A stretch of DNA of 24,000 nt, taken from NCBI RefSeq assembly GCF_016890225.1, contig NZ_JAFELM010000021.1, positions 30,933 to 54,932 of the forward strand. The letters are read 5' to 3'. How positions within the stretch are numbered: position 1 is the stretch's first letter; every line of letters begins with the position of its first letter. This document shows positions 8,509 through 22,821 of the stretch, piece after piece. This DNA comes from Bacillus suaedaesalsae. GTDB lineage: Bacteria > Bacillota > Bacilli > Bacillales > SA4. The notes under the pieces are model-generated. The model ran no database searches. It was not told the origin of the DNA and saw only the letters and a list, made by a program, of their open reading frames with translations. The position numbers and the translations under genes were made by a program.

Positions 8509-8534
8509 ATTTAAAGGAACTAACTAAAATTTAG

Positions 8535-8606
8535 CTGGGCTAGCTGGATTTGAACCAACGCATGTCGCAGTCAAAGTGCGATGCCTTACCGCTTGGCTAT
8601 AGCCCA
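8535..8606 (-). tRNA. tRNA-Gln (anticodon UUG)
   Basis: Reverse complement reads TGGGCTATAGCCAAGCGGTAAGGCATCGCACTTTGACTGCGACATGCGTTGGTTCAAATCCAGCTAGCCCAG. It has a 7-bp acceptor stem, D loop AGCGGTAA, anticodon loop CUUUGAC and a GGTTCAAATCC T-arm. CCA is not encoded. Confidence 0.9.
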
Positions 8607-8741: not shown

Positions 8742-10292
8742 TTGAAAAAACGTTTATTTAATAAATCAATATTTTTAAGTGTTACTTTTCTTAGTTTTTT
8801 ATTAATCGTACCGTTATTTATACAAAATGTGATAGAAGAAAAAAACTTAAATACAGCTGGATGGAGCAGAAGTGTTGATATTGGCGAGGCAGCAATAAAT
8901 AAATCGACCTTTCAGAGAATTAATAATGATTCTATCGATATATACTTATCAGATAGTAAATCGTCTATTAAGAAAGTGGAGATTGATCCACTAACTTTAA
9001 ACGTGATCAATGAAAAAAAAATTAAAGTACCTAGCAATCCGTATTATACATATTGGGTGTCTGCTGACGATGAAAATATCATATATTTTTCAGGTGAGAA
9101 CTTATATCGATTTGGTTCTGGAAAAAATGAAATAATTGCTGAGAAGGTTGACGAGCTTACTGTAAATAATGACACGATTATCTTTCGAAGTGGTGAAGTT
9201 GTATATACCTTGAATCCTACAGATTTTTCTAAGACCAAAGTCTTGAGTGATGACAATATTTTAAAGATTATCGTGGACCCGTATAGTCCCTCATTTATTT
9301 CATTACATCAATATGGTGAGATTGGCGGGGTGGAGTTTAACTATCATAAATGGAATGGACATAAGTATGATTCAACTTCAGTTTATGTAAAAGATTCATT
9401 TACTCAGCCTGTTACAAATATTGACTTCAAAGAATGGGATAAAAACTTATTGTTAATTTATGAAACAACGGCAATTAGTGGAGGTGCAAAAGATACCTCA
9501 CATCATTACTTAGAACTACCGTTAAATATGACAAATCATGAACCTGTCGAAACAAAACTAAAAATATATGACGAGAATAATATAGAAATAAGCTCAGTTC
9601 TAGAGATTCAATTGCAAAATTCTAAAAAAGAGGCTAGTGTGATATTCAGAGGTAATGGAGAGTTGAAAAAATCAGTGCAAAATCGAAATCTCTATCTCGC
9701 TTCATTGAATAACGGAAAATGGAGCGCCGCTCGCATAAGTACAAATTATGACCCAGTTGTAGAACCTTTACTTACAGGTGATGACTATTTAACATGGTTG
9801 ATACACGATGGGACTAATTATAAGTTAGTGGCTGCGAATACGTCACCACAAGTAATAATAGATAGTAAAAGTAGTACGATTGAGGATTGGATAAGGGCAT
9901 TAGAAGATACTTTATTCGGTTTAACGAGTGCATTAGTAATGTTATTATTCTTTATTTTATTAGTTATACCAGCTATTATCGTCATCTTTTTAGCTAAATT
10001 TTTCGATGTGAAAAAAACAAAACTTGCTGAAATCACGGCAAATGTATTATTTGCATTGTGTTCATATGCATTATTGAATAAGCTTATGAATGAAAAGTTT
10101 CTTTTAATCGCACCAGAGTATATATCTTTTCAAGGATCAATATGGGTTATCTTAGTAGCAGTGATAGGTGTCTCCTACATCTTGACAAATTTGACGAAAA
10201 ATCAGGATTGGGAATTTGAAATGAATGTGATTTATTTTGTTGGAGTCAGTATCTGGGCATTTTCGTTGTTGATTGGTCCGTATATTATTTAA
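8742..10292 (+). CDS. Membrane protein: N-terminal anchor, large extracytoplasmic beta-rich domain, C-terminal multi-TM bundle
   Basis: TTG start after SD GAGGTGG. TM at residues ~10-27 and 4-5 TM helices in the last ~130 aa. No catalytic motif recognised. Confidence 0.65.
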   Translation: MKKRLFNKSIFLSVTFLSFLLIVPLFIQNVIEEKNLNTAGWSRSVDIGEAAINKSTFQRINNDSIDIYLSDSKSSIKKVEIDPLTLNVINEKKIKVPSNPYYTYWVSADDENIIYFSGENLYRFGSGKNEIIAEKVDELTVNNDTIIFRSGEVVYTLNPTDFSKTKVLSDDNILKIIVDPYSPSFISLHQYGEIGGVEFNYHKWNGHKYDSTSVYVKDSFTQPVTNIDFKEWDKNLLLIYETTAISGGAKDTSHHYLELPLNMTNHEPVETKLKIYDENNIEISSVLEIQLQNSKKEASVIFRGNGELKKSVQNRNLYLASLNNGKWSAARISTNYDPVVEPLLTGDDYLTWLIHDGTNYKLVAANTSPQVIIDSKSSTIEDWIRALEDTLFGLTSALVMLLFFILLVIPAIIVIFLAKFFDVKKTKLAEITANVLFALCSYALLNKLMNEKFLLIAPEYISFQGSIWVILVAVIGVSYILTNLTKNQDWEFEMNVIYFVGVSIWAFSLLIGPYII

Positions 10293-10444: not shown

Positions 10445-11248
10445 ATGAAAGAAGGTGATACCTTGAGCATGGTAGAAGAGCATGCTGAGAAGTTAGTTCA
10501 AGATGCGTACGAAAGAAGAGCGTCAGATATTCATTTTATCCCCCGGAAAGATGACGGCCACATTAAGTTACGGATCGGAAATGATTTAGTAGAAAAAGAG
10601 AAGGTCCCTAAAGAATTATTCACCAAACTTATCAATCACTTTAAATTTCTTGCTTCGATGGATATCGGAGAAAAGAGAAGACCACAAACAGGCTCTTTGG
10701 TTTTAACAGTTAAGGAAAAGCTCCTTAATCTTCGTCTATCAACCTTACCCACTCCTCATGAAGAAAGTTTAGTCATTCGCGTGCTTCCACAAGAAGAATC
10801 ATTTCCACTGTCAGAGTTATCTCTATTTCCAAACTCAACAAAAACGTTATTGTCATTTATGATGCACTCTCATGGATTAATCATTTTTACCGGGCCGACC
10901 GGGTCAGGTAAAACAACCACAATGTATTCCTTGCTTCAAGCCTCCAATCAACAATTAAGCCGAAATGTTATCACATTAGAAGATCCAATTGAAAAGCATT
11001 CTGATGAACTTTTACAAGTTCAAGTTAATGAAAAAGCAGGAATTACCTACAGCACAGGATTAAAGGCAATTCTAAGACATGATCCAGACATTATTTTGGT
11101 TGGGGAGATTCGTGATGAAGAAACCGCCCAAATTGCAATCAAAGCTGCGATGACAGGACATTTAGTATTAAGTACGATGCACACAAAAGATGCAAAGGGA
11201 GCTATTTACAGACTGTTAGAATGTAATCGTTCACGAAGCATGAGATAA
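10445..11248 (+). pseudogene. comGA: comGA (competence pseudopilus secretion ATPase), 3'-truncated: homology ends near nt 11221
   Basis: Walker A GPTGSGKTT, Asp box ITLEDPIE, Walker B DPDIILVGEIRD and His box TGHLVLSTMHT are all present. After KGAIYRLLE the ORF reads CNRSRSMR and stops (267 aa against ~350-360 aa for full-length ComGA). No comGB-like ORF follows. The likely true start is the ATG at 10469 (SD AAGGTGA at 10452-10458). Confidence 0.8.
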
Positions 11249-11288
11249 ATTCAAAACCTATAAGACAGATTCAAAAGCTATGAGATAA
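11238..11288 (+). repeat. Tandem ~20-bp direct repeat plus reiterated ATGAGAYA motif at the island junction
   Basis: ATTCAAAACCTATAAGACAG (11249-11268) against ATTCAAAAGCTATGAGATAA (11269-11288), 16/20 identical. ATGAGATAA occurs at 11240 and 11280, ATGAGACAA at 11334 and ATGAGATAG at 11449. Confidence 0.55.
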
Positions 11289-11484
11289 TGTTGGATTCGA
11301 TTACTGATTTAATAGGTATTAGAATTCACTAACATGAGACAAATGTATTTGTAATCTTACAAAGCTTTTTCATATCACATTCTAATTTTTTTAAGCTGCA
11401 TCTTTGTTTCATAGACCTTGAAACAAAAGGTGTAAATACTCACTGATGATGAGATAGGATAACATGATTCTAATGCTAAAACTC

Positions 11485-11513
11485 TTACATAATAGTTCCC
11501 CAATATATATAAA
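11485..11513 (+). promoter_or_regulatory. Candidate SigA-type promoter for the HEPN gene
   Basis: TTACAT (11485-11490), 17-nt spacer, TATAAA (11508-11513), ~45 nt upstream of the start. Confidence 0.3.
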
Positions 11514-11558
11514 AATTATAATAATACCCTTATGACAAATTTAATAGGAGAGAAAATT

Positions 11559-11933
11559 ATGATAGTACAAAGTGAAATAGAAACAATGCAAAAAGCCTAC
11601 GGAGAACTGTATGAAGTAGAAAACTTGTTGAGGTTATACATAAAGGAGAAAATGCAACTAACCTACGGTGTTCATTGGTTTTATGTAGCTCCTAGAAAGG
11701 AATATAAACGTCCTCCCAAAAAAGAATTTGAAAAATTACTATTCCACGAATATGAACAAGTTTACCTTAGAGCATATCCCGAAGCTTTTAAAGACCTCAA
11801 TTCGACATTCATTTATCAACTCCACTCCCTTTACCCACTCAGAAATACAATAGCTCATAATCATTATTTAGATAGGGAAGAACTTTCTGATTTATTACTT
11901 TTAAGTAGTAAACTCAAAGATGTGCTTAAATAA
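11559..11933 (+). CDS. Small Swt1-like HEPN-domain protein (putative RNase), 124 aa
   Basis: Start taken at the ATG after SD AGGAG (11546-11550). Rx4H motif LRNTIAHNH at nt 11841-11858. The N-terminal E..LR.YI....L..G..W pattern and overall all-helical layout match the remembered Swt1-type HEPN profile. Confidence 0.6.
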   Translation: MIVQSEIETMQKAYGELYEVENLLRLYIKEKMQLTYGVHWFYVAPRKEYKRPPKKEFEKLLFHEYEQVYLRAYPEAFKDLNSTFIYQLHSLYPLRNTIAHNHYLDREELSDLLLLSSKLKDVLK

Positions 11934-12120
11934 TAAAATAAATGTATTAGTATTCGAAAAAGAGAATTATAATTGATATGAATTTAAAAAGATATGATGG
12001 CTTAATTTATATATTAAAGAACACGCAAAATTAACTTGTGCGTATTAAATGTGTTAAAGAATAAATAAAGATTAAGAAAAAAATACCACAATAAAAAAGA
12101 AAAAGTCGGTAGGTCGTAAA

Positions 12121-12714
12121 ATGATGAAAAACATAATAAATTCAATTTTATCAAAAAATTTAACTGCCAAAGACCTTAAATATATCGAATTAATAATCAA
12201 GGCAGATATCCTAAATACAATAAATAAAAAACATAAGAAAAACGACATAAGGATAATAACACATTTGAATACCAGTGGTAATTTTGGATGTGCGATAATG
12301 GATTTTAATGGAGAAAAACAGTTATTTATTGCTCACAGTAAAGTTCAAAAAGAAAAGGATTGGGAACTAGTAAATGCAATGTTCTCGGAACCATACTTAA
12401 AAGGTGCCATTCGCTGCTATCGGGCGGAAGAGCTAAATCAAAGATATACGACTGAATGGCTAGATGATAATCTCGATAAAGACACATTAACTGCCTATGA
12501 TCGAAACAGGGACACTGAATCTAAAATTTTAGAAGAGGTTGCATCTTATTTAGATAATCAAGGATATAATGAAAGTAAAGATGAAATTAGTTTATATCTA
12601 TACACTGTTAAAGAACCCTGTCCAAGTTGTTCAAAGGTTATTAATACATTCAAAAGTGATTTTAGAGAGATAAATTTAGAGGTTTATTATCAAAATAATT
12701 TAATAAAAAAATAG
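12121..12714 (+). CDS. Deaminase-fold (polymorphic-toxin-type nucleic acid/nucleotide deaminase-like) protein, 197 aa
   Basis: D131-T-E133 followed 32 residues later by P-C167-P-S-C170, which is the [H/C/D]xE-x(24-36)-PCxxC spacing. A preceding beta-hairpin-like NFGCAIMDFNGEKQLFIAHS and the RDTESKILEEVA helix resemble toxin-type deaminases as I remember them. No signal or trafficking domain. Confidence 0.45.
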   Translation: MMKNIINSILSKNLTAKDLKYIELIIKADILNTINKKHKKNDIRIITHLNTSGNFGCAIMDFNGEKQLFIAHSKVQKEKDWELVNAMFSEPYLKGAIRCYRAEELNQRYTTEWLDDNLDKDTLTAYDRNRDTESKILEEVASYLDNQGYNESKDEISLYLYTVKEPCPSCSKVINTFKSDFREINLEVYYQNNLIKK

Positions 12715-12725
12715 GTGGTGAAATA

Positions 12726-13136
12726 ATGAATACAAATGAGTATGATCGGGATTATATAGAAATCATTGAAATGGTACCTATTTTAATGGATGACTTTCTA
12801 TCTGGTGGAGAAACTGTTGCGGAGGCTTCAGGAATGACATTAGTTGAATTAGAGGATTTATTTATAAAAGCAATGCCCTTAAAAATAATTGCTTATATTG
12901 AGTTATTAAACTATCCAAAGTTAAGAGGTAATGCAGAATTAACAACATATTATTTAAATAGGATAATTAATGAGATTGGATCATTTGATTTTTATAATAA
13001 TTTAAATGAAGAAAATCGTAAAAGGTTTGGAAAAAGTCTTTTGGATTTATTAACCATGCCTCAAAAAAAAATAAAAATGAATGAACGAGCTATGGTAAAC
13101 TTTGCACCTATGATTAATGAATCGCTTATTACATAA
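12726..13136 (+). CDS. Immunity-like partner of the deaminase-like protein (136 aa, no recognised domain)
   Basis: Starts 11 nt after the upstream stop with SD AGGTGG. Acidic and helical. The two genes share the terminator at 13120-13148. Confidence 0.4.
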   Translation: MNTNEYDRDYIEIIEMVPILMDDFLSGGETVAEASGMTLVELEDLFIKAMPLKIIAYIELLNYPKLRGNAELTTYYLNRIINEIGSFDFYNNLNEENRKRFGKSLLDLLTMPQKKIKMNERAMVNFAPMINESLIT

Positions 13137-13148
13137 GCGATTTTTTTT
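13120..13148 (+). terminator. Rho-independent terminator overlapping the stop codon
   Basis: AATCGCTTAT (13120-13129), loop TAC, ATAAGCGATT (13133-13142): a perfect 10-bp stem followed by a T-run to 13148. Confidence 0.8.
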
Positions 13149-13313
13149 GACAATTGTAAAATCAATATGATTCCCTTTGTAGTATTAGGTCCCAAATAGG
13201 ATGAGAGTAATTTTATTTTCTACAAGAGTTCTTAATTAAAGAGATTAGACTGTATACATATTAAAAGGGGAATTACTGTCCTTAGACATTAAAACAAGAA
13301 TAGGGTGAAAGAA

Positions 13314-13568
13314 ATGACAGAAAGAAAAGTGCAAGCTACACTAACCATTTCATGCGATATAGTAATAGATGACACAATTAAGAAAAACATTGAGGAATCT
13401 TATTCAAGATCATTGAATGATAAGGAGATAGCTAATAAATTGTTATATGCTTTCTTAAATCCTAAAATCGACTTGTTTAATGAACCAGACCTAGTTGATG
13501 GACAATGGGACATGGTGTGTGAGTTTAAAGGGAGATTCAGTGATTTTAGCCTTGACATTGAAGAGTGA
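13314..13568 (+). CDS. Small acidic hypothetical protein (84 aa from ATG 13314, 87 aa from GTG 13305)
   Basis: SD AGGGTGA (13302-13308) is spaced appropriately for the ATG at 13314. Net acidic, no TM segment and no recognised motif. Confidence 0.5.
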   Translation: MTERKVQATLTISCDIVIDDTIKKNIEESYSRSLNDKEIANKLLYAFLNPKIDLFNEPDLVDGQWDMVCEFKGRFSDFSLDIEE

Positions 13569-13660
13569 AAACTCAATTTACTAAAATTAGTTTTCTAAGT
13601 AAAATTCCCTAATTTTGTGTTATGCTGAAGCATATATAAATATTAAAGGGGAATAATGAC

Positions 13661-14713
13661 TTGACTCAAATCGCTATAAAAAAATTGATTGCTCATGATA
13701 TTGACTTAGATCAAAAAGCACCGACTCCAGCAACAAATGTTATTGACTTGACAACAACATCTCAAGAAGTACTTAACTTCTTTTCAGATCATGTGAAAAC
13801 AGCTCATACAACTAAACAAATAAAAGTATGTCGTTTTTCATATGAAAATGCTCAAGTTCTTTTAGACTCAATAGATATAGCTAAAGATATCAATGACGAT
13901 GATATGTTTGTATCTGCAACAGCTGATATGACGCATAGATTATTTAACATTATGAAAAGTTCTTCTACTAAAAGTTCAGGTGCAATGATTTATCTAGTAT
14001 ACGAAGATTTATCAGATTCTTCCCTTCATTTGGGGATTATGAAAATGGATCCGAATAAAGGAATTCAATACAACAAATCCACTAATTCATTTATCGTCCA
14101 ATCAAATATGCTACCGAATGCAAAAGACCGTCTTCATAAGACTGCTTTTATCAAGTTAAAAGAAGATTTATGGGGTGAGGATGTTCATTTATTTGTGCTG
14201 GATAAGCAGCAAACCAATGAAACAGTATCGAAGTTCTTTTTAATCTCATTCTTAGAAGCAGAAGTAAAAATAAATGATACTCTTGTTACGGAATTGGTAG
14301 AGAAAAAATTAGTGGAGATGGCAAGAACTCAGAAAATCACCCAAACTCCTCTTGATTTGTTGGACTTTAGTACGAAAGTAGATCGGATGTTAACAAGTCA
14401 CAAAGAAATTGACCTTGATTACGAATTGGACAGCCTATTAAAGTCATACATTTCTAGTGATGGAGATAGAGAGTCGAAGATAGAAGAAATTAAACTTGCT
14501 TTAAAAGAAGAGAACGAAGAGGTCTATTTCGAATTTAAAGCAACTAAAAAGCCGTCATATGCAGTATATTCAGACGTTCAAAATCAAATAAATTTTAAAT
14601 TTCCATTGGCTCTAAAAGGGAAGAAGGTTTTTATTAAAACAGAAGAAGTAGATGGACAAACAGTGACGACAATTAGGCTTGAAGGAACAGATTTAGTCGA
14701 AAAATTTAAGTAA
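13661..14713 (+). CDS. NdpA/YejK-like (NA37 family) nucleoid-associated-protein homologue, 350 aa
   Basis: TTG start after SD AAAGGGGA (13646-13653). N-terminus IAIKKLIAHDIDLDQ. Central GAMIYLVYEDL...LHLGIMKMD and HKTAFIKL...LDKQQTNETVSKFFLISFLEAE parallel the remembered YejK pattern (start I.LH.LI; ...ARIDL...FLKGR.G.KV.DFF.DFLGA.E). Confidence 0.5.
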   Translation: MTQIAIKKLIAHDIDLDQKAPTPATNVIDLTTTSQEVLNFFSDHVKTAHTTKQIKVCRFSYENAQVLLDSIDIAKDINDDDMFVSATADMTHRLFNIMKSSSTKSSGAMIYLVYEDLSDSSLHLGIMKMDPNKGIQYNKSTNSFIVQSNMLPNAKDRLHKTAFIKLKEDLWGEDVHLFVLDKQQTNETVSKFFLISFLEAEVKINDTLVTELVEKKLVEMARTQKITQTPLDLLDFSTKVDRMLTSHKEIDLDYELDSLLKSYISSDGDRESKIEEIKLALKEENEEVYFEFKATKKPSYAVYSDVQNQINFKFPLALKGKKVFIKTEEVDGQTVTTIRLEGTDLVEKFK

Positions 14714-16365
14714 TGGAGAATAGTATGAAACATTTAGTTGTCACATTTCAAAACTTAGTAACTGATTTAGACCAGGTGTCAAGTCGATTGGAATGGACTG
14801 AATCACTTCACCTTGTCTCTGTAACATATAGAGACAAGGTAGGATCATTTATTCATGTAATAAAAAATCCAACATACTTAGCTGAAATTAACAACACCCA
14901 TATAAGTGTAGAAGTAAAAATTGGTACAAATATACTCTATGATCAGCAATTTATTGATAAGTATGAAATGAAGATACTTGAGGACGATCAGGTAGCTGAA
15001 GTTACCATTAGCTTCAACAAAGAAATTAGCTTACAGCTACATTCAAATGTAACGTTATTCTTTAACATAGACTCATTTCTCTCAGAGTGGAGTTTCAATA
15101 ATTTAAGTATGGTTACATTCTTTAAGAATATAGATAAAGAAAAACAGGTATTCATTTACTTGCCTACTGACGAGAAAATAGAGAATCCCTTTTTGAAAGT
15201 AATCCCTTTTAAGGATTACAATGGATTTGAACCGAATGCCTTAGAACAAAATCAAAAGGATTTAATTGATGATAGTATAAAAATAAGGGAGGAACATACA
15301 CGTATATCGACAAGTATGCCTGTTCCTTATTATTTTTATTTTGAATCAAGCAAATTAAAATTCCCTGAAAACCTTTACTTATCTTTTCAGCAAAGTCTAT
15401 TTTTCTTATCATTACTCCATATAAGTAACAAATATGAAAATGAAGTTTTTATTGTTAGGGGTCAAAAAAGTGTGGAGTATAATTGGCAAAAAGATTTTAA
15501 ACCGAACTTTGCAGATATTTTATATAGTATTTTCAATTTCTGTTATGGTAAGGAACAGGCACAAGATAAACTGGAAATCGGTAGGAATATACTAACTACT
15601 TATCATCTTGATGAATCAATAGATAAATTAGACGCTCAGTTAGATAAAATTGAGAAAACAATTAATCGACATTTCTCACTTTATGTGAATGATAAAATAA
15701 AGAAGTTTTTAGATGAATCAAAAAAGGCAATAGATGAAGCTCATAAATATGCAAAAGAAACCAGAGAAGCCGCAGATAAGGTAGTCTCTAATATTAACAC
15801 TTCGATCATTGGATTAATTACAGCTGTTTTCTCAGGTATTGTTATTATGGCTAGAGGAAACAAGTGGTTTTTAATCGTAGCACTCTTACTACATATGTTT
15901 TATTTTGGATTAACATATTTTCTTAACCGTTATTTCGCTAAAAAGAAGCAAAAAGAAATTCTTGATGTGTATGACCAATCTATTGGATATATATCCAATG
16001 TCACTGAAGAAGAAAAGGTAGAAATAAAACAAATGTATATTGATTCTGCTTCAGAGAGTATCGATAACAATTTGAAAATCTATAAATGGCTCTCAAATTC
16101 ATTGGTTGTCTTAATGCTATTGCTAAGTATTGTTGTTTTCTTTTTTATGCCTAATTTGGATAGTGCTAAAAAACAATCAGAGCAACAAAATATAAAACAA
16201 GAACAGATAAATAAAGGTACTTCACCGAGTAATAATGAAGACAAAGTTCAAAATACCTCAGAAAAATCGAAACAGTCACAGGACCAAGCTGAAAAAAATA
16301 ACTCTAAGGTGAATCCCACTAATAGTAATACAGACTCGAACAAAAACTTGGATAATAAAAAGTAG
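14713..16365 (+). CDS. Large coiled-coil / 3-TM membrane protein with a Q/N/K/S-rich C-terminal tail, translationally coupled to the NdpA-like gene
   Basis: The ATG overlaps the upstream TAA (TAATG at 14711-14715). An alternative in-frame ATG lies at 14725 after GGAGA. About 370 aa are soluble with no recognised domain. A coiled-coil segment (DKLDAQLDKIEKTI...EAHKYAKETREAADKV) follows, then TM helices IIGLITAVFSGIVIMA, WFLIVALLLHMFYFGLTYFL and LVVLMLLLSIVVFFFM, then a ~75-aa low-complexity tail. Confidence 0.7.
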   Translation: MENSMKHLVVTFQNLVTDLDQVSSRLEWTESLHLVSVTYRDKVGSFIHVIKNPTYLAEINNTHISVEVKIGTNILYDQQFIDKYEMKILEDDQVAEVTISFNKEISLQLHSNVTLFFNIDSFLSEWSFNNLSMVTFFKNIDKEKQVFIYLPTDEKIENPFLKVIPFKDYNGFEPNALEQNQKDLIDDSIKIREEHTRISTSMPVPYYFYFESSKLKFPENLYLSFQQSLFFLSLLHISNKYENEVFIVRGQKSVEYNWQKDFKPNFADILYSIFNFCYGKEQAQDKLEIGRNILTTYHLDESIDKLDAQLDKIEKTINRHFSLYVNDKIKKFLDESKKAIDEAHKYAKETREAADKVVSNINTSIIGLITAVFSGIVIMARGNKWFLIVALLLHMFYFGLTYFLNRYFAKKKQKEILDVYDQSIGYISNVTEEEKVEIKQMYIDSASESIDNNLKIYKWLSNSLVVLMLLLSIVVFFFMPNLDSAKKQSEQQNIKQEQINKGTSPSNNEDKVQNTSEKSKQSQDQAEKNNSKVNPTNSNTDSNKNLDNKK

Positions 16366-16405
16366 GTCTATAATATGTTGTTTAACATTATAATCTACTA
16401 CAACT

Positions 16406-16453
16406 AAAAACCAGAAAGGAATCATTCATTACTAATGATTCCTTTCTGGTTTT
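16406..16453. terminator. Strong bidirectional terminator shared by convergent genes
   Basis: AAACCAGAAAGGAATCATT (16408-16426), loop CATTACT, AATGATTCCTTTCTGGTTT (16434-16452): a perfect 19-bp stem flanked by A- and T-runs. Confidence 0.9.
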
Positions 16454-16480
16454 ATATATTACTTGTAAACCGTCGACTAT

Positions 16481-16993
16481 TTATTTCAAAATGGAATTGT
16501 ATAGTGATCCCTTCCTCTTAGACCATTCGTAAATATAGTTTTTTAATTCCTCGACTCTTTGATCAGCATTAATCTTTCCATTTCTCTTACCAACTAATGA
16601 ATCCATTTTTAAAAACTCATGTATTAAATTTTCAGAATCGGGATACTCATAGCTATCGTTATATCCTGGATTAAGCCAATGCAAGTAAATAAAGTAATTG
16701 TTCTTTTGAAAATATCTTAGGGTGTTTAATGCATCTTTCTTAAATTGTATAGAACATAAAACGATTTCTGGAAGGTAGTCAACTTGTATTATCTCTTCTA
16801 CTGTTTTTCCCCGTTCTTGTGGAGAACCATTGATTAAAAATACGTCAGTGAACTCTCCATTAGGACCTACTTCTAATTTTCTTTCTGACCTTTGAGCTGT
16901 TCTTATATTCTTATCGTTAAAAAGTTTCTTCCATGTTTCCGACTTCCCAGAATTTCGATGACCAATTACTGCAATAAGTAATTTTTTTGTCAT
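16481..16993 (-). CDS. Small P-loop NTPase (170 aa), family not recognised
   Basis: SD GGAGG upstream. Walker A GHRNSGKS near the N-terminus (nt 16943-16966). A hydrophobic strand VFLINGSPQE is a possible Walker B. Confidence 0.6.
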   Translation of the reverse strand: MTKKLLIAVIGHRNSGKSETWKKLFNDKNIRTAQRSERKLEVGPNGEFTDVFLINGSPQERGKTVEEIIQVDYLPEIVLCSIQFKKDALNTLRYFQKNNYFIYLHWLNPGYNDSYEYPDSENLIHEFLKMDSLVGKRNGKINADQRVEELKNYIYEWSKRKGSLYNSILK

Positions 16994-17187
16994 AGTTTTA
17001 CCTCCATTATCTTACTGTTATGGTTAACATATTCTAAAAGAAGGTAAATAGAACTATTCTTTATATCAAGAATAATACTTGTACTGATCAAAGCCAGATA
17101 GTTTATTTTATGTGGGTACTATTCTAGAGTACATACTTTTTTACTTTTATTGGGAAAATAGTTTCATGTTTGAAAGGAGGATTTTTA

Positions 17188-17646
17188 ATGAGAAATTTCA
17201 CTTCGGCATTTACTCTTGCTGTATTACTAATATCAGCACCACATTTCACAAAGGCAAATTCAATGAAAGAACCCGTTGTACTTGAATCTGGTGAATGGAC
17301 ACTGACACTTGGTAATCCTGAAGTAACAGAGGAGGAACATTTGGCAAAAGGGAATAAAAATGCAGTTGTTTACTCATTAGGAATTACTAATAAATCTGGA
17401 CAAAAATATAATGTGAGAGTCCATACATTTAGAAAGGAACAAGGGAAGTCCTATGATTTCGGAATGTCTTTACATGAGACTGAAGGAATAGATATGGGTA
17501 CCGCTTCGGAACAAGGGAATGAAATTAAACATGTAAATTTCCCTGTGGGTAAAAAGACAAAAGAATTTGAAGTATTAATTACATGGCAGGATAAAGAAGA
17601 ATTCGGCAGGTTCTATAAACAGGAATTTATTGTTCCAGTAAAATAA
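17188..17646 (+). CDS. Secreted small protein (152 aa)
   Basis: SD AAAGGAGG (17173-17180) precedes the ATG at 17188. Signal peptide MRNFTSAFTLAVLLISAPHFTKA-NS. Confidence 0.65.
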   Translation: MRNFTSAFTLAVLLISAPHFTKANSMKEPVVLESGEWTLTLGNPEVTEEEHLAKGNKNAVVYSLGITNKSGQKYNVRVHTFRKEQGKSYDFGMSLHETEGIDMGTASEQGNEIKHVNFPVGKKTKEFEVLITWQDKEEFGRFYKQEFIVPVK

Positions 17647-17829
17647 TAACATTATTTATGGTTGTATATGAGATGTTGTGGAATTGAGGCAACTCTTTCT
17701 TTAAATAAATGGGAGTTTTTAGTATAAGAACAGAAGTTGTTGTTCAACTCCCTCCTTAATTGAAGTTAACAAGCAGGTAGTTTAGCTGAGTAGGAAGGAT
17801 ATATTGTTATTAATATTAGAAAAGTATTG

Positions 17830-17857
17830 AGAACGTCAAAGATGACGTTCTTTTTTA
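17830..17857 (+). terminator. Rho-independent terminator ~185 nt downstream of the nearest + strand stop
   Basis: AGAACGTCA (17830-17838), loop AAGA, TGACGTTCT (17843-17851), then T6. Confidence 0.7.
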
Positions 17858-18017
17858 TTGGCTGTTTTCGTAATGATTGTTGCTTTTTATTTATCCTGAA
17901 AGATTGTAGTATAAAAGAATAACAATTTATAATAGGAGATTTAAAAATCAAATTTTAAAGAAAGTTATGAAACCTTTTGATTTTATATCCGTAAAGTTAT
18001 ATAGGAGAGGTGATGTT

Positions 18018-18533
18018 TTGAAAAAGTTTTACGTACCGTTTATGTTAATCTTTATCTTGTTTGGTTGCTCAACCAAGACTACGGAACCAAGTAACACAGA
18101 AGGTTTATCATTAGAAAACCAAATCACCAATGTTATGTCAGAAAATAATTTAAGCAATAAAGAAATTATTGATTATGATATTAAGGATAACTTCATCTAC
18201 GTAATTTTCGAAAATAGACAAGGAGATAACAGTTATCCAGATTTAGCTATTCTAAAGAATAACAATGGAAAATTAGTATGGGAAGCAGGTCCAGACGACC
18301 GAACTCAGTCAATAAGTGATGCTATGGTCTTTGGAAGGGATGAAGGTTCTACTGTAACATTACTTTTACCAAACCAAGAGAACATAAAAAGCATTAAAGT
18401 CTTAGGGGAATATGCAAAAGCTGTAACTTACGTTGAGGAAGTTACTGATGATTTTTATATGAAACATATGTATTGGATTGCATATACGAATGAAGAACCA
18501 ACACACGAGGATATTGAAATCATAATGGAATAA
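18018..18533 (+). CDS. Lipoprotein (171 aa)
   Basis: SD AGGAGAGG (18003-18010) precedes the in-frame TTG at 18018. Signal peptide MKKFYVPFMLIFILFGC-S carries the lipobox LFGC. Confidence 0.65.
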   Translation: MKKFYVPFMLIFILFGCSTKTTEPSNTEGLSLENQITNVMSENNLSNKEIIDYDIKDNFIYVIFENRQGDNSYPDLAILKNNNGKLVWEAGPDDRTQSISDAMVFGRDEGSTVTLLLPNQENIKSIKVLGEYAKAVTYVEEVTDDFYMKHMYWIAYTNEEPTHEDIEIIME

Positions 18534-18539
18534 ATGATT

Positions 18540-18570
18540 AACGCTTGGGTATAAACCCAAACGTTTTTTT
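18540..18570 (+). terminator. Rho-independent terminator
   Basis: AACGCTTGGGT / ACCCAAACGTT stem (10 of 11 bp) with loop ATAA, followed by T7. Confidence 0.75.
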
Positions 18571-18821
18571 ATGCACTTCTAAACATCTCGACAGTAGCAT
18601 AATTTGACTTATGGTCAGCTTGAAATAAAAGTTACTTCACTCGCTCCTTGTGAGCCAACTCGTTTCGATTTTGTGCGACTCCACCACGTTTACGAACTTC
18701 TCGGTAATCTTCGATTAGTAATTTACTACATCTCCATCAGTATTCAATATTTTAATATCATATGTATCAATACTTGATACTGAATCTAATTCATTAGATT
18801 GTAAGATTTCAATAACTTCTT

Positions 18822-19337
18822 TCACAACCATCTTAGCTGCCTTAGTTGCTTCTTACCTGAATCTTTTATTGATGTTTGGATGGAAATAGTCTTTTGTGGA
18901 TACTCGGTATGTATATCTCCAACACCTTCGTATTCTTTAAGTCCTTCCATTAAAGTTGATGTTAATAGTGAAAGTTCCTTGTTAATTTCTTCACTATTTT
19001 GCGAAGATAAATCTATTCCTTCAACAACAATATTATAATCTTTTATTGAGGATGAGTTAATAATTCTTGTTGTGGTTGTCTTTATATCATTTTTCACGGT
19101 GTTAATATAATCTGCATTCCCATTTATTTGTATCACTAACTCATTCTTATGTGTTGTTTTTACAAACACACCCTCATATTTGTCATCTAACCTATCAGTC
19201 AAAGATTCCAATAAAGATAAATCCTTCCCTATCTTCGAATCATTAGCTTTTTTGGCTTCAAAAGGATTAGTTAAGATGCTAAATGATAATGTTCCTACTA
19301 CTATAATTCCAACAATGATTATAATCACTTTTTTCAT
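18822..19337 (-). CDS. N-terminally membrane-anchored protein (171 aa), possibly frameshifted near its 3' end
   Basis: SD AGGAGGG. TM anchor MKKVIIIIVGIIVVGTLSFSIL. A second frame continues (EATKAAKMVVKEVIEILQSNELDSVSSIDTYDIKILNTDGDVVNY) to a stop at 18715-18717. Confidence 0.55.
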   Translation of the reverse strand: MKKVIIIIVGIIVVGTLSFSILTNPFEAKKANDSKIGKDLSLLESLTDRLDDKYEGVFVKTTHKNELVIQINGNADYINTVKNDIKTTTTRIINSSSIKDYNIVVEGIDLSSQNSEEINKELSLLTSTLMEGLKEYEGVGDIHTEYPQKTISIQTSIKDSGKKQLRQLRWL

Positions 19338-19534
19338 AAGATCCCTCCTGATATGAGGGTATGTACTATTTTCTAAATAATGTCATAAAAGTCTTTACTG
19401 ATTAGAAGAAAATAGACATTTGATCATAAAATGGACTTTCCCTTTTATAGGGATGTTATTAATGTGAAATTCGAAATTAGTCTGGATTAAGTTTTAATAA
19501 ATATATGTTATATTGTGACAAACTCATCTTCTTA

Positions 19535-19726
19535 TCAAACCTGAATACTAGTATGATTTTTCGACTTAATCTGGTTATAAAAAAGTATATATGATAGGCA
19601 AATAACGAGTGGGAAATTCAATTGTTTTCCTGCAACTAACAACTCGATTTTAAACATATGGGTTAGGAAAATTAACAGATGGTTCATAACTAAGCTAAGT
19701 GAGAAGGTATATATAAAGTTATTCAT
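19535..19726 (-). CDS. 63-aa hydrophobic peptide, start overlapping the stop of the upstream gene
   Basis: ATGAATAA overlap (19719-19726). AAGGAGGTGA lies inside the 3' end of the upstream gene, 8 nt before this ATG. Two hydrophobic segments: FIYTFSLSLVMNHLLIFLTHMF and FPLVICLSYILFY. Confidence 0.45.
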   Translation of the reverse strand: MNNFIYTFSLSLVMNHLLIFLTHMFKIELLVAGKQLNFPLVICLSYILFYNQIKSKNHTSIQV

Positions 19727-20702
19727 ATTTTATCTCACCTCCTTTTAGCTCCTCGTCTAAGGACTGAAGTACAATAGGAAGAGCCATATGCAATGTTTCT
19801 TTGTCACCGATGTTCTCACTCAAACTAAGTAACTGGTTCAAAAATTTAACCAACAGTCGGTTCACTAGCAAGAGAATAATTAGGAATTTTAATAAATTTG
19901 GATCAACTAGAGGATTGCCCAGTCCAGCATTTTTAAACATTAATATAAAAGGAGTAATAAACTTGTCAATAAAAACTGAATTGACTTGATTTTCCTTAAA
20001 GTATTCGATATACCAGCCTATAAACTTAAATACTCTTTGAACTTCTGATAATTCTTCTTTGGTAATTCTATTAATTTGATAACCCCAGTTACTGACATCC
20101 ATCCATTCTTGTGTAGAGTCTTTATTTGTTATTGATCCAGGTGATGTGTATCCTAACTGATCCAAAAAAATTTTGCTGGTCTCTTCATCTAGTTGTCCAT
20201 TTGAAAAAATTTCATTAATCACATTTAGGACTGTAAATAATTTTTCCTGTTCTTGTCTCCTCAATTTCATTTTTCTTTCTAACTCTTTTTTACTTGGTCT
20301 TCCAGAATTCAGAACTGGAAGATTTTTCTCGGCTACTTCTCCGACAACCCATTCTTTTTTACTATTATCTTCAATCACTTCTAATAAATGATTAAAATTT
20401 ACAATCATATCTTCTACATAATCAACCAATGATAACTTTAGTTTTTTAATATCTACTAAATACCCTTTTGAAAATAGGAACTGGATAAGATCTTTATCGT
20501 ATATTCCATTACTTTTTAAATTCGTTATCTCTAATATTACGTCTAATGAATTTAAAGGATAGCACGCTTTAACACCTTTTCCTTTTCCTTCACTGCTTCT
20601 TTCAGAGGATAATAGTCCGTTTTGTACATATCTTCTAAATTGGCTATCTGTTAAATGAATATTATTCTTTTCCGCCTCAATAAATATTTCTTCCCTTTTC
20701 AT
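19719..20702 (-). CDS. Hypothetical protein with an N-terminal MerR/YhbD-like HTH-type domain (327 aa)
   Basis: Start taken at the ATG (track M9) after SD AAGGAG. N-terminus REEIFIEAEKNNIHLTDSQFRRYVQNGLLSSERSSEGKGKGVKACYPLNSLDVILEI fits the remembered MerR-like winged-helix pattern. The rest is helical and unrecognised. Confidence 0.55.
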   Translation of the reverse strand: MKREEIFIEAEKNNIHLTDSQFRRYVQNGLLSSERSSEGKGKGVKACYPLNSLDVILEITNLKSNGIYDKDLIQFLFSKGYLVDIKKLKLSLVDYVEDMIVNFNHLLEVIEDNSKKEWVVGEVAEKNLPVLNSGRPSKKELERKMKLRRQEQEKLFTVLNVINEIFSNGQLDEETSKIFLDQLGYTSPGSITNKDSTQEWMDVSNWGYQINRITKEELSEVQRVFKFIGWYIEYFKENQVNSVFIDKFITPFILMFKNAGLGNPLVDPNLLKFLIILLLVNRLLVKFLNQLLSLSENIGDKETLHMALPIVLQSLDEELKGGEIKYE

Positions 20703-20944
20703 AAAGTCACACTCCTTATAATCCAATTCTAAGTGAGATTAATAGATGAAAACAACATGATGAGAATGCGCAAATGAAAATAAATTATAATAGACCTAGA
20801 ATTAATATCTTTATAATAAATAGAAGGAGTTAAGAAATGATTTCTAGAAGTAAGAGCTGTTAAAGTTTAAAGATGTGTGAAGTGGAAGAATGATAGCAAT
20901 TAATCAGTAAGGTCATGCAAAGATAGTTAAGGGGAAATGGAACA

Positions 20945-21322
20945 ATGTTAGATAATAAAATACAAAAAGATGATATAGTGCATTTTTTAGACCTAGTAAA
21001 TTCAAGTTATAGTCCTAATTTTAAGTTAGGGCACTCAAAAATTGGAAAGCCGAAGCCATATTATAAAATATTAAAAGAAGAATACGTAGATAGTCTTGAA
21101 TATCAAAGTTTTATAAAAGTCTATTTATTTTCAAGACATGTTTTAAATGAGCAAGAATTGTATGTATTAAATCATACATATGGGGTATCAGGTGAGTTCT
21201 ACAAGGGGACTCAAATTGCAAAAATGTTAAACTTATCAAATACACGTATAAGAGCTGTGAGGGTTAAAGGTGAACAAAAAATAAGCACATTTTTAAGGAA
21301 GCAGCTTAATAAAGTTCATTGA
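20945..21322 (+). CDS. Small protein with a sigma-70 region-4-like HTH only (125 aa)
   Basis: SD AAGGGGA. The C-terminal LNEQELYVLNHTYGVSGEFYKGTQIAKMLNLSNTRIRAVRVKGEQKISTFLRKQL matches the region 4.2 pattern. No region 2. Confidence 0.5.
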   Translation: MLDNKIQKDDIVHFLDLVNSSYSPNFKLGHSKIGKPKPYYKILKEEYVDSLEYQSFIKVYLFSRHVLNEQELYVLNHTYGVSGEFYKGTQIAKMLNLSNTRIRAVRVKGEQKISTFLRKQLNKVH

Positions 21323-21388
21323 ATTGATGAATCTTTATCTTAAATGTTTAAAATGTTGAATGCACAAAAGTAAATCATAGAAAACAAA

Positions 21389-21415
21389 GGGACCACATTG
21401 TGGTCCTATTTCTTG
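21389..21415 (+). terminator. Probable terminator
   Basis: GGACCAC / GTGGTCC stem at 21390-21406 followed by a T-rich stretch (TATTTCTT). Confidence 0.45.
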
Positions 21416-21520
21416 TGATTCCACCAATAAAATTATGAATTCTTATAAAATTTTAAAAAACTTTACAAATTATTAAGCCAAATTAGAAACTTTATTGTCT
21501 AATGTATGGAAGCATAAATA

Positions 21521-21646
21521 GTGGATGGGGGAAATGACATTATTAAACTAGTTAAAAAAGCGCAAAAGGGTGATGACATAGCATTCTTGAAGCTTTTAGA
21601 AAAGTACGAGTTCGTAATAGATACAAAGTATTTGATTCCGACTTAA
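21521..21646 (+). pseudogene. Remnant of an ECF/sigma-70-family sigma factor N-terminus (41 codons)
   Basis: GTG-initiated MDGGNDIIKLVKKAQKGDDIAFLKLLEKYE is the typical start of group-4 sigma factors (AQ.GD..AF..L...Y). It then diverges and stops. Regions 2 and 4 are absent. Confidence 0.45.
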
Positions 21647-21762
21647 AAGTAAAGCTAATTAAATATGAACAACTTGGAAGGGAATAGGGTAGCTGACAAA
21701 TCTCTTAGTATTATTTTCTTTATAAAGAGCCAATGAAGAATCGAGTATCTTCATTTAGTAGT

Positions 21763-21795
21763 AGCAGGTCACATTTATAAGTGAACTGCTTTTTC
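21763..21795 (+). terminator. Hairpin plus T-run (plus-strand terminator with no intact gene upstream)
   Basis: AGCAGGTCAC (21763-21772) / GTGAACTGCT (21781-21790), 9 of 10 bp, followed by T5. Confidence 0.5.
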
Positions 21796-21812
21796 ACTTT
21801 TTAGAGGAGATA

Positions 21813-22127
21813 CTATTCTTCATTCATTCTGCTTACCAAGAGTGTGATTCTATCAGTTCGGCTAAACATATTAATAAAAATGAAGTTAACACATTCAATA
21901 GCTTTAATAAATTTAAAGTGGATCGGTGTATCATCAAAAATGCAGTTTCTCTGGAGACATAATCCATTGCACGAAACATTCATATCCCATAAAAAGTAGG
22001 CTGAATAATAACCCCTCTCAGACAGCATGACTCCTATTCCTTCCTTAAATTCAACTATCTTTGTCCCTCCAATACTAAGGGACTCGACCTCTCTCAAGTA
22101 ATCTAAAAAACGTTCTTCTATATTACT
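21813..22127 (-). CDS. Hypothetical protein (104 aa)
   Basis: Start taken at the ATG (track M32) after SD AGGAGG. No recognised motif. Confidence 0.5.
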   Translation of the reverse strand, partial: SNIEERFLDYLREVESLSIGGTKIVEFKEGIGVMLSERGYYSAYFLWDMNVSCNGLCLQRNCIFDDTPIHFKFIKAIECVNFIFINMFSRTDRITLLVSRMNEE

Positions 22128-22202
22128 CATGCTACAAATACCTCCTAAAAACCTGAGTATCTTCATATTAGTCCAGAAACGGTAAAAATATTCACCATTA
22201 TT

Positions 22203-22230
22203 AAAAAAATATTTTATCAAAATGAATAAT
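22203..22230. repeat. 28-nt direct repeat, copy 1
   Basis: AAAAAAATATTTTATCAAAATGAATAAT. 25 of 28 identical to copy 2 at 22289-22316. Confidence 0.7.
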
Positions 22231-22239
22231 TAATAATAA

Positions 22240-22272
22240 AAAGAGACCCTCAAATTAAGATTGTAGGGTCCT
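22240..22272 (-). terminator. Probable terminator of the XRE gene
   Basis: GACCCT / AGGGTC stem. On the minus strand it is followed by TCTTTTT. Confidence 0.4.
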
Positions 22273-22288
22273 TTCTTTCATTTCTATC

Positions 22289-22316
22289 AAAAAAACATTT
22301 TATTAAAATGAATAAG
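22289..22316. repeat. 28-nt direct repeat, copy 2
   Basis: AAAAAAACATTTTATTAAAATGAATAAG. On the minus strand it contains the CATTTT/AAAATG mini-hairpin followed by T7. Confidence 0.7.
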
Positions 22317-22343
22317 ATATGAAAATCGCGTCTAAACAGTATA

Positions 22344-22697
22344 TCAAGACTTCTGGTTATTTTTATCAAAGAGGTCAGCGCCTTTTTCCACAAGTGAAAG
22401 AAGATATTCGGATTGGTCGGGATTTTCTTTATTTATCTTTCTAAGGAGGTGGTTAATGTGAAGGAGTCTTAACTCAAACTCGTCATCATCTTTTATAACT
22501 TTCATTGTCTCTAGACTAAATAGAGCAAACTCATCTTGCAGTTGTTGTAACAATGAAAGTTGTATGGTTTCACTCTTTCCAGTTTCAAGGTTACTTAGAT
22601 AACCAGCTGAGACTCCTAATTTATTTGCTAAATCGTGTAAACTGTATCCACATTTCTTTCGAAGAGTTCTAACTTTTTGTCCTATATCAGTTATCAT
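22344..22697 (-). CDS. XRE-family helix-turn-helix transcriptional regulator (117 aa)
   Basis: HTH_3 pattern IGQKVRTLRKKCGYSLHDLANKLGVSAGYLSNLETGK. The SD GAGGTGA favours the ATG at 22697 over the GTG at 22706. Confidence 0.8.
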   Translation of the reverse strand: MITDIGQKVRTLRKKCGYSLHDLANKLGVSAGYLSNLETGKSETIQLSLLQQLQDEFALFSLETMKVIKDDDEFELRLLHINHLLRKINKENPDQSEYLLSLVEKGADLFDKNNQKS

Positions 22698-22821
22698 GTC
22701 GTTCACCTCGTGGCTAGATTAGTATGATGTTTTATCTAGTTGTCTTTCTAATTTCATTATAACAAGAGGTAAAAAGATTTGGTGGAAAATTTTGAAAAAA
22801 ATAAAGGGGTTATGTTTCTAG

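Follow-up and report, generated by a model that had tools for sequence, protein, structure and literature searches.

A standalone deaminase gene of the BURPS668_1122 clade with a coupled partner gene in Bacillus suaedaesalsae, a candidate toxin/immunity module acting inside the cell

Introduction

The BURPS668_1122 clade of deaminase-fold domains, which is represented in Pfam by PF14424 (Toxin-deaminase), is marked by the signature RxxDxExK in helix 2, "possesses a DxE motif", has a CxxC motif in helix 3, is often truncated at its C-terminus, and is accompanied by immunity proteins of the Imm2, Imm3 and SUKH families (Iyer et al., 2011; PMC3239186). In a structure-clustering study, members of the PF14424 clade have been reported to deaminate cytidines in single-stranded DNA (ssDNA) when fused to nCas9 (bioRxiv 10.1101/2023.05.21.541555). 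The bacterial deaminase toxin families that have been dissected are BaDTF1 (DddA), which is SCP1.201-like, BaDTF2 (SsdA), which is DYW-like, and BaDTF3, which is Pput_2613-like. Here we describe a standalone gene of the BURPS668_1122 clade and the small gene directly downstream of it in a stretch of 24,000 nucleotides (nt) of Bacillus suaedaesalsae (RefSeq assembly GCF_016890225.1, contig NZ_JAFELM010000021.1, positions 30,933 to 54,932 of the forward strand). This whole stretch is called the window, and coordinates are counted from its first letter. An earlier note, made from the letters of the window alone, had proposed a toxin-type deaminase uncoupled from secretion and an immunity-like gene at 12121-13148, and its statements on the open reading frame (ORF), the motifs, their spacer, the gap to the second ORF (ORF2) and the terminator were all correct.

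Results

Deaminase gene and its conserved signature

The deaminase gene (12121-12714, plus strand) encodes 197 amino acids (aa), and was assigned to the BURPS668_1122 clade by Pfam, with a deaminase fold in an AlphaFold2 model and in Foldseek matches. A candidate ribosome-binding site, GGTAGGT (12108-12114, plus strand), can be read from the sequence 6 nt before the ATG. The PF14424 profile matches the protein with an E-value of 2.5e-23 and 83.3 bits, where the curated gathering cut-off is 29.6 bits, and the match covers profile positions 10-146 of 146. This bears out the proposed membership in a polymorphic-toxin deaminase family, and judged by this E-value the motif pattern is far above chance expectation. 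Secondary Pfam matches to SNAD4, NAD1 and APOBEC_N (27 bits or less, near threshold) lie beneath the PF14424 stretch.

The motifs IAHS, DTE and PCPSC occupy residues 70-73, 131-133 and 166-170, with a spacer of 32 residues from E133 to P166. Codons 128-135 (12502-12525, plus strand) read R128-N-R-D131-T-E133-S-K135 at the start of helix 2 and fit the published RxxDxExK, while codons 166-170 (12616-12630, plus strand) read P166-C-P-S-C170 at the start of helix 3, fit the published CxxC and hold two Cys residues that are predicted zinc ligands from the alignment and the model. Codons 55-73 (12283-12339, plus strand) follow the conserved G53-N54 and, according to the model and the conservation, form the beta1-beta2 hairpin that ends in A71-H72-S73.

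Scanning 1.84 billion cluster representatives with HMMER gave 132 relatives of the deaminase, and conservation was counted on the 85 that have complete domains and were aligned. Residues E133, K135, P166, C167 and C170 are invariant in all 85 relatives, and N54 and S73 (84 each) and R128 and S169 (83 each) are nearly so; A71 is kept in 77. The column of D131 has Asp in 81 relatives and Cys in 4, and that of H72 has His in 55 and mostly Phe or Tyr in the others. All of the residues that are invariant for the clade (N54, S73, R128, D131, E133, K135, P166, C167, S169 and C170) were found in the window protein.

The Asp at the position of the first metal ligand had been regarded as unusual, and as a possible mark of a distinct clade or of an inactive fold. 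This view cannot be kept: RxxDxExK is the published hallmark of the clade and, with Asp in 81/85 aligned relatives, this residue is normal for the family and does not point to inactivity. An inactive fold was rejected on two grounds, namely that the clade-invariant residues are all present and that PF14424 members are reported to be active on ssDNA cytidines. The His of IAHS was also considered as a substitute zinc ligand and was rejected, since His is found there in only 55/85 relatives and is replaced mainly by Phe or Tyr, as compared with 81/85 for D131.

A word-index search of 5.8 billion proteins with the deaminase reached a single other protein, and the identity to anything in the searched collections was at most 39%. 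On these comparisons, the protein adds a new and divergent member to the clade that was described in 2011.

Structure model of the deaminase

The AlphaFold2 model, built on 47 relatives, has a predicted local distance difference test (pLDDT) score of 87.5 and a predicted template modeling (pTM) score of 0.86. In the model, strands 55-62 and 65-72 form a beta-hairpin closing in FIAHS, helix 132-147 carries D131 at its N-terminus, strand 156-162 comes next, and helix 168-180 carries C167 at its N-terminus. A long insert, residues 74-131, separates the hairpin from the first of these helices, and after helix 3 only one strand (184-190) and a short helix are modeled before the protein ends. The topology of a deaminase is thus seen in a confident model.

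With Foldseek against the Protein Data Bank (PDB), the sole coherent matches were APOBEC3C, 3H and 3G, with a probability of about 1 and a TM-score of only about 0.36. Together with the PF14424 match, this upholds the proposal of a deaminase fold. No PDB chain was detectable from the deaminase by sequence, and by this measure the PF14424 clade is without a solved structure. A structural search of BFVD gave no significant match.

Partner gene and operon layout

ORF2 (12726-13136, plus strand) encodes 136 aa with a pI of 4.64 and starts 11 nt past the deaminase stop codon. It is the presumed inhibitor or immunity gene of the pair. Because its strong ribosome-binding site, AGGTGGTGA (12713-12721, plus strand), overlaps the deaminase stop codon, translation of the two genes is probably coupled. 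An intrinsic-terminator-like element (13119-13151, plus strand), consisting of a hairpin at 13119-13143 and a U-tract, overlaps the ORF2 stop codon. The hairpin has 10 Watson-Crick pairs and one G-U pair, a 3-nt loop and a U8 tail; with -11 kcal/mol and z = -4.6 against shuffled sequences, it is the sole such site within 11200-13700.

No match to ORF2 was obtained in Pfam, NCBIfam, PADLOC or PHROG, and neither ORF2 nor the profile of the partner family matched the PDB by sequence. The single-sequence structure model of ORF2 is all-helical with low confidence (pLDDT 64), and Foldseek with this weak model gave a best E-value of 2, which is meaningless. ORF2 and four of its relatives showed no helix-turn-helix (HTH), ribbon-helix-helix (RHH), AbrB or other DNA-binding family.

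The word-index search of the 5.8 billion proteins retrieved only ORF2 itself. Its status as a true orphan was overturned by translating the genes downstream of the deaminase relatives, which exposed its family. The idea that the partner is an acidic DNA mimic or a Ugi-like factor was weakened by the same family: since its pI spans 4.4 to 9.3, acidity is not a conserved property.

Conserved two-gene module in related loci

The closest deaminase relatives, which are P0004, P0006, P0007 and P0002 (loci L007, L008, L009 and L001) and a metagenome protein (L010), are all 178-197 aa in length, and each is followed by a coupled gene for an ORF2 homologue of 138-171 aa. The proposal of a cognate partner downstream of the deaminase therefore holds in five other loci, giving six with the window. 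ORF2 shares 35% identity with the L007 partner across 117 aa, and the L007 and L009 partners match each other with 76 bits. Every member of the family scores 131-188 bits against the hidden Markov model (HMM) of the family, window ORF2 having 133 bits, and the N-terminal motif is Y-[ED]-x-I-x-E-x-V...F...A-[SA]-G-[RM]-T-L-[YV]-E-L-E.

The two genes overlap by ATGA in L007, L009 and L010 and by 11 nt in L008, and are separated by a gap with a strong ribosome-binding site in the window (11 nt) and in L001 (15 nt, with AGGAGGT). The contigs carrying the module range from 27 to 54% in GC content. These comparisons indicate that the deaminase and the ORF2 family form a conserved, translationally coupled and co-diverging two-gene module, in which ORF2 would have an inhibitory function. 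Two further standalone deaminase relatives (L002 and L004) are accompanied by unrelated small partners, as is typical of immunity proteins.

With an alignment of five deaminase sequences as query, GTDB genomes and JGI metagenomes yielded one locus each, and a pattern search of JGI metagenomes with the partner motif found no locus. For phages, there was no tblastn match in 50,697 phage records, none in IMG/VR with either gene, and no PHROG match. A phage origin of the module is unsupported by these searches and by that of BFVD.

Possible relationship of the partner family to Imm3

Window ORF2 has no match to Pfam Imm3 (PF14425, gathering threshold 25 bits) even at E-values up to 10. Two partners from related loci have similarity to both families. 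The first is the 121-aa partner that follows a standalone 173-aa deaminase in the sister locus L014; it scores 44 bits against the ORF2-family HMM and has a colinear, near-full-length but sub-threshold match of 18.3 bits to Imm3 (profile positions 5-96 of 119). The second, from L011, also matches the ORF2-family HMM and has a colinear, sub-threshold match of 15.0 bits to Imm3 (profile positions 2-84). The genuine Imm3 of a B. mycoides plasmid (L005) scores 170 bits against Pfam Imm3 and has no significant similarity to ORF2. When the alignment of nine partners was compared with three Imm3 sequences by hhalign, P reached only about 0.05, over 35 N-terminal columns. A distant relationship between the partner family and Imm3 is possible on these alignments, and the partners in L014 and L011 may stand, in evolution, between Imm3 and the family of the window partner. 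Standalone PF14424 deaminases with overlapping small partners are located at 5637-6543 in L014, 2948-3851 in L011 and 1902-2904 in L012.

Standalone lineage and genomic neighbors

The deaminase has no LXG, WXG, Rhs, PAAR or other non-deaminase Pfam domain, and no signal-like hydrophobic run at its N-terminus. As had been claimed, the 197-aa protein is standalone, with only deaminase families in Pfam and no delivery domain. Among the 132 relatives, 55 are of standalone size (140-215 aa), and longer PF14424 relatives carry WXG100, VgrG-like, fn3, peptidoglycan-binding or ADP-ribosyltransferase modules. In a neighbor-joining tree, which is rough, contains representatives only and has no support values, proteins of standalone size make up 17/18 of the clade of the window protein, 22/24 one level up, and 24/61 of the remainder.

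A survey of the window's ORFs of at least 80 aa gave no toxin, trafficking or secretion gene. The flanks of L007, L009, L010, L011, L012 and L014 have no trafficking domain and no complete toxin gene, and no secretion genes were seen adjoining L007, L009, L010 and L014. Most of the comparison contigs are short (1.8-14 kb), and the source genome was viewed as the 24-kb window only. Polymorphic-toxin domains are defined (Iyer, Zhang and Aravind) as C-terminal domains of proteins with trafficking or repeat modules or as cassettes near a complete toxin gene, and within the window the deaminase is neither of these. A directly downstream cognate gene, which belongs to the same definition and is presumably inhibitory, is present in the six loci.

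Restriction-modification or HEPN-type neighbors were found in four of ten loci, which is a raw count without an enrichment statistic. They are a small HEPN-like protein directly upstream in the window (Swt1-like HEPN, E-value 4e-4), a type I restriction-modification system in L007, a methylase and a SacI-like restriction remnant in L011, and a 653-aa Hypoth_Ymh protein in L012. The neighbors are FtsK and Replic_Relax genes of an integrative element, similar to an integrative and conjugative element (ICE-like), in L002; RadC, DUF1643 and a helicase in L004; and housekeeping genes in L009, L010 and L014. L005 on the B. mycoides plasmid has the classical arrangement, with a toxin of 513 aa, an Imm3 gene and additional orphan cassettes for toxin and immunity.

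A different organization is present in Clostridiaceae bacterium M8S5 (CP118523.1; L006, 7314-10340), where the first protein has 297 aa, a signal peptide and, at its C-terminus, a PF14424 deaminase (80 bits). The protein encoded immediately after it has 699 aa and contains all three domains of clostridial binary-toxin B / anthrax protective antigen (127, 67 and 49 bits). Judged by these domains, the pair looks like an A-B binary toxin with the deaminase as its enzymatic component.

Setting of the pair in the window

The window corresponds to a Bacillaceae-like yqgS-to-comGA region. The comGA homologue (10445-11248, plus strand) stops at 267 aa and covers T2SSE profile positions 5-257 of 370, and neither the 3' part of comGA nor comGB-GG is in the window. 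From 11250 to 22900 there are about 11.6 kb of ORFs with lower GC content (28-33%), mostly without a Pfam match, which include the deaminase pair, and this stretch ends at an HTH_3 repressor-like gene (22344-22706, minus strand) and a recJ-like gene (about 22930-24000). It looks like an island, or like a replacement by which the competence operon was disrupted; when its boundaries were sought in the window, neither an integrase nor any convincing direct repeats on the flanks came up. The sole RNA gene detected in the window is a tRNA-Gln gene with anticodon TTG (8534-8606, minus strand), which is outside the variable stretch. This tRNA gene is upstream of a 516-aa ORF (8742-10292) without a family match.

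The HEPN-like gene directly upstream of the deaminase (11532-11933, plus strand) encodes 133 aa with an RNTIAH (Rx4H) motif, and besides the Swt1-like HEPN its weak matches are PADLOC PDC-M34B and Cas13a HEPN. The 187-nt spacer in front of the deaminase has no sigma-70-like promoter scoring 9/12 or better, and there is no terminator between the two genes. Because of this, co-transcription of the HEPN-like gene with the pair is possible, and the transcription unit may consist of three genes. In the other loci, the conserved module does not include the HEPN-like gene.

Downstream of the pair, a gene for an NA37/NdpA-like nucleoid-associated protein (13661-14713, plus strand; E-value 4.7e-16) overlaps with its stop codon the start of a gene for a 550-aa protein (14713-16365, plus strand), which has a coiled coil, predicted transmembrane helices and a low-complexity tail rich in Ser, Asn and Lys. 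Neither of the two has a match in the defence databases. The product of a gene at 16481-16993 (minus strand) has 170 aa, a P-loop (GHRNSGKS) at its N-terminus and no family match in Pfam, PADLOC, PHROGs or NCBIfam.

Discussion

Family membership, an intact catalytic signature, conserved linkage to a partner gene and the absence of delivery domains are directly supported by the data. We favor, with a probability of roughly 55%, the reading that the pair is a self-contained toxin/immunity module acting inside the cell, with a role in addiction or abortive defence. Since there is neither a delivery domain nor a neighboring full-length toxin gene, the module most likely acts inside the cell that produces it. 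A standalone lineage with its partner, often near restriction or HEPN genes, likewise suggests an intracellular toxin-antitoxin or defence role, and the toxin-antitoxin-like or anti-phage reading of the earlier note is plausible in these contexts.

What the enzyme acts on, how the partner restrains it, what sets it free and what the pair does for the cell are inferred as follows. Gene 1 would be a compact, cytoplasmic, zinc-dependent cytosine deaminase of nucleic acids, in which D131, C167 and C170 would hold the zinc and E133 would be the proton shuttle; by analogy with the tested clade members, its substrate is most likely cytosine in ssDNA. Gene 2 would encode a helical inhibitor that blocks the deaminase by forming a 1:1 complex with it, in the manner of DddI and SsdAI with their toxins. 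While both proteins are made, the deaminase would be silent. If the partner were lost or titrated, whether because the island is lost, host translation is shut off or a phage infects the cell, the free deaminase would change C to U in exposed ssDNA, and uracil excision, strand breaks or hypermutation could then lead to growth arrest. The outcome would be stabilization of the genomic island (addiction) or abortive defence.

Several points weigh against this reading. Both proteins were searched against PADLOC-DB 2.0 at E-values up to 0.1 and no match was found, the partner family appears to be without the DNA-binding domain usual in type II antitoxins, and the order with the toxin first is that of polymorphic toxins and is rarer among toxin-antitoxin pairs. 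The flanks of three of the ten loci (L009, L010 and L014) consist of housekeeping genes, the tree showing the standalone lineage carries no support values, and a distant full-length toxin or a type VII secretion system (T7SS) may lie beyond the short contigs and the 24-kb window. In addition, the report of activity on ssDNA covers other members of the clade, tested as Cas9 fusions.

The pair could also be an orphan polymorphic-toxin cassette that recombines into a full-length secreted toxin elsewhere, for example an LXG toxin of a T7SS, or that is kept mainly for its immunity gene, as protection from the deaminase toxins of neighboring cells. PF14424 is a classical polymorphic-toxin domain and its longer relatives carry the modules given above, the gene order here is toxin then immunity, L005 is a textbook case with its cassettes beside a complete toxin, and the published definition includes standalone cassettes without trafficking modules (Iyer et al., 2011). 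The published cassettes, however, have a complete toxin gene nearby, and none was found in the window or in the six related loci. Moreover, the gene has its own start codon, its own ribosome-binding site and an N-terminal helical region of about 50 residues that can be aligned among the closest relatives. Because the lineage is almost uniformly of standalone size and keeps to one partner family on contigs whose GC content varies from 27 to 54%, a stable autonomous unit is indicated rather than a store of toxin tips, and we consider an orphan cassette to be a possible explanation but not a probable one.

Export of the deaminase as an interbacterial or anti-host effector by an unrecognized route is a less likely explanation, in which the partner would give immunity against attack by sister cells. 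The protein might leave the cell through a T7SS, by means of its N-terminal helices or with the partner as its chaperone, or through transfer machinery belonging to a mobile element. Every bacterial deaminase toxin that has been studied by experiment (DddA, SsdA and BaDTF3) is a delivered effector, the L006 relative is clearly secreted, having a signal peptide and a binary-toxin B component as its partner, and some standalone relatives (L002 and L004) occur in contexts similar to conjugative elements. The window protein itself, however, has no signal peptide and no WXG/LXG, PAAR or other trafficking module, and genes of secretion systems are neither present in the window nor seen beside L007, L009, L010 and L014. 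Least probable of all, and in our opinion hardly to be expected, is a non-toxic housekeeping or regulatory enzyme that edits tRNA, mRNA or nucleotide pools, or a mutator that generates diversity, with ORF2 as a specificity or activating subunit. The deaminase superfamily does include tRNA and nucleotide deaminases with partner subunits, and the three related loci among housekeeping genes would be in keeping with such an enzyme. Its distribution, however, is sparse and patchy (one word-index relative in 5.8 billion proteins and 132 representatives in 1.84 billion), the gene sits in the low-GC variable stretch, both genes diverge fast, with about 35% identity between the nearest pairs, and the known partners of this toxin clade are immunity proteins.

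Within the favored reading of a module acting inside the cell, a more specific suggestion is that the standalone PF14424 clade and its helical partner are an unrecognized intracellular defence or abortive-infection system, and this we put forward only tentatively. An APOBEC-like ssDNA cytosine deaminase would be held by its inhibitor and freed upon phage infection or plasmid entry, and would then hypermutate or destroy replicating foreign (or host) DNA.

As it stands, the result correctly places the protein in a family that has been known since 2011. It goes slightly beyond the literature that we found in describing a stably standalone lineage that has its own conserved, unclassified partner family and is often located near restriction or HEPN genes and away from secretion apparatus. 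If the favored reading is true, the warhead of a polymorphic toxin can be turned into the effector of a toxin-antitoxin or defence system. Since the catalytic core has about 150 residues and comes with a natural presumed inhibitor, the protein is also a small candidate enzyme for deaminating cytosine in base editors or in sequencing chemistry.

Comparison with known systems

The closest described systems are the polymorphic toxins of the BURPS668_1122 clade (Iyer et al., 2011; Zhang et al., 2012), which share with the window pair the PF14424 domain, the RxxDxExK and PCxSC signatures and a small gene directly downstream, which in the window may be a distant relative of Imm3. The window pair differs from them in having no N-terminal trafficking or repeat modules and no nearby complete toxin or cassette array, in a partner that stays below the thresholds of Imm2, Imm3 and SUKH, and in a lineage that is almost entirely standalone.

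DddA-DddI, SsdA-SsdAI and BaDTF3 are likewise bacterial deaminase-fold toxins, which mutate cytosines in DNA and are each neutralized by a cognate immunity protein whose gene is directly downstream. The DddA clade (SCP1.201) is the sister of the BURPS668_1122 clade, and the two have in common a polar residue two positions past the catalytic Glu (PMC3239186). These toxins nevertheless belong to other clades with HxE signatures in the characterized representatives, are C-terminal domains of large proteins delivered by the type VI secretion system, and have solved structures.

Intracellular deaminases that take part in conflict are known from dCTP deaminase and AvcD-AvcI, which deplete nucleotides, and from RdrB of RADAR, and AvcID is similar to a toxin-antitoxin system. 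They are, however, of dCMP-deaminase-like or adenosine-deaminase-like families and act on free nucleotides or on ATP or RNA, and the AvcI antitoxin is an RNA, unlike the protein partner in the window. With type II toxin-antitoxin systems, the window pair shares two small, co-directional, coupled genes and a scattered occurrence over unrelated, mobile or defence contexts; it differs in that the toxin gene is first and in that the partner has no HTH, RHH or other DNA-binding domain. Our literature searches gave no deaminase-fold toxin of the BURPS668_1122 clade in the role of toxin of such a system.

The AID/APOBEC enzymes include the best structural matches of the window protein, APOBEC3C, 3H and 3G, and have a similar spacing from xE to PCxxC. 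The window protein differs in having DxE instead of HxE, in the low TM-score in spite of the high match probability, in being bacterial and in being paired with a presumed inhibitor gene, and its clade belongs to the C-terminal-hairpin division and not to the helix-4 division (PMC3239186). If its site of action is indeed intracellular, the module would represent a bacterial equivalent of APOBEC-style restriction, in which DNA editing serves immunity or the stabilization of mobile elements under the control of a protein inhibitor.

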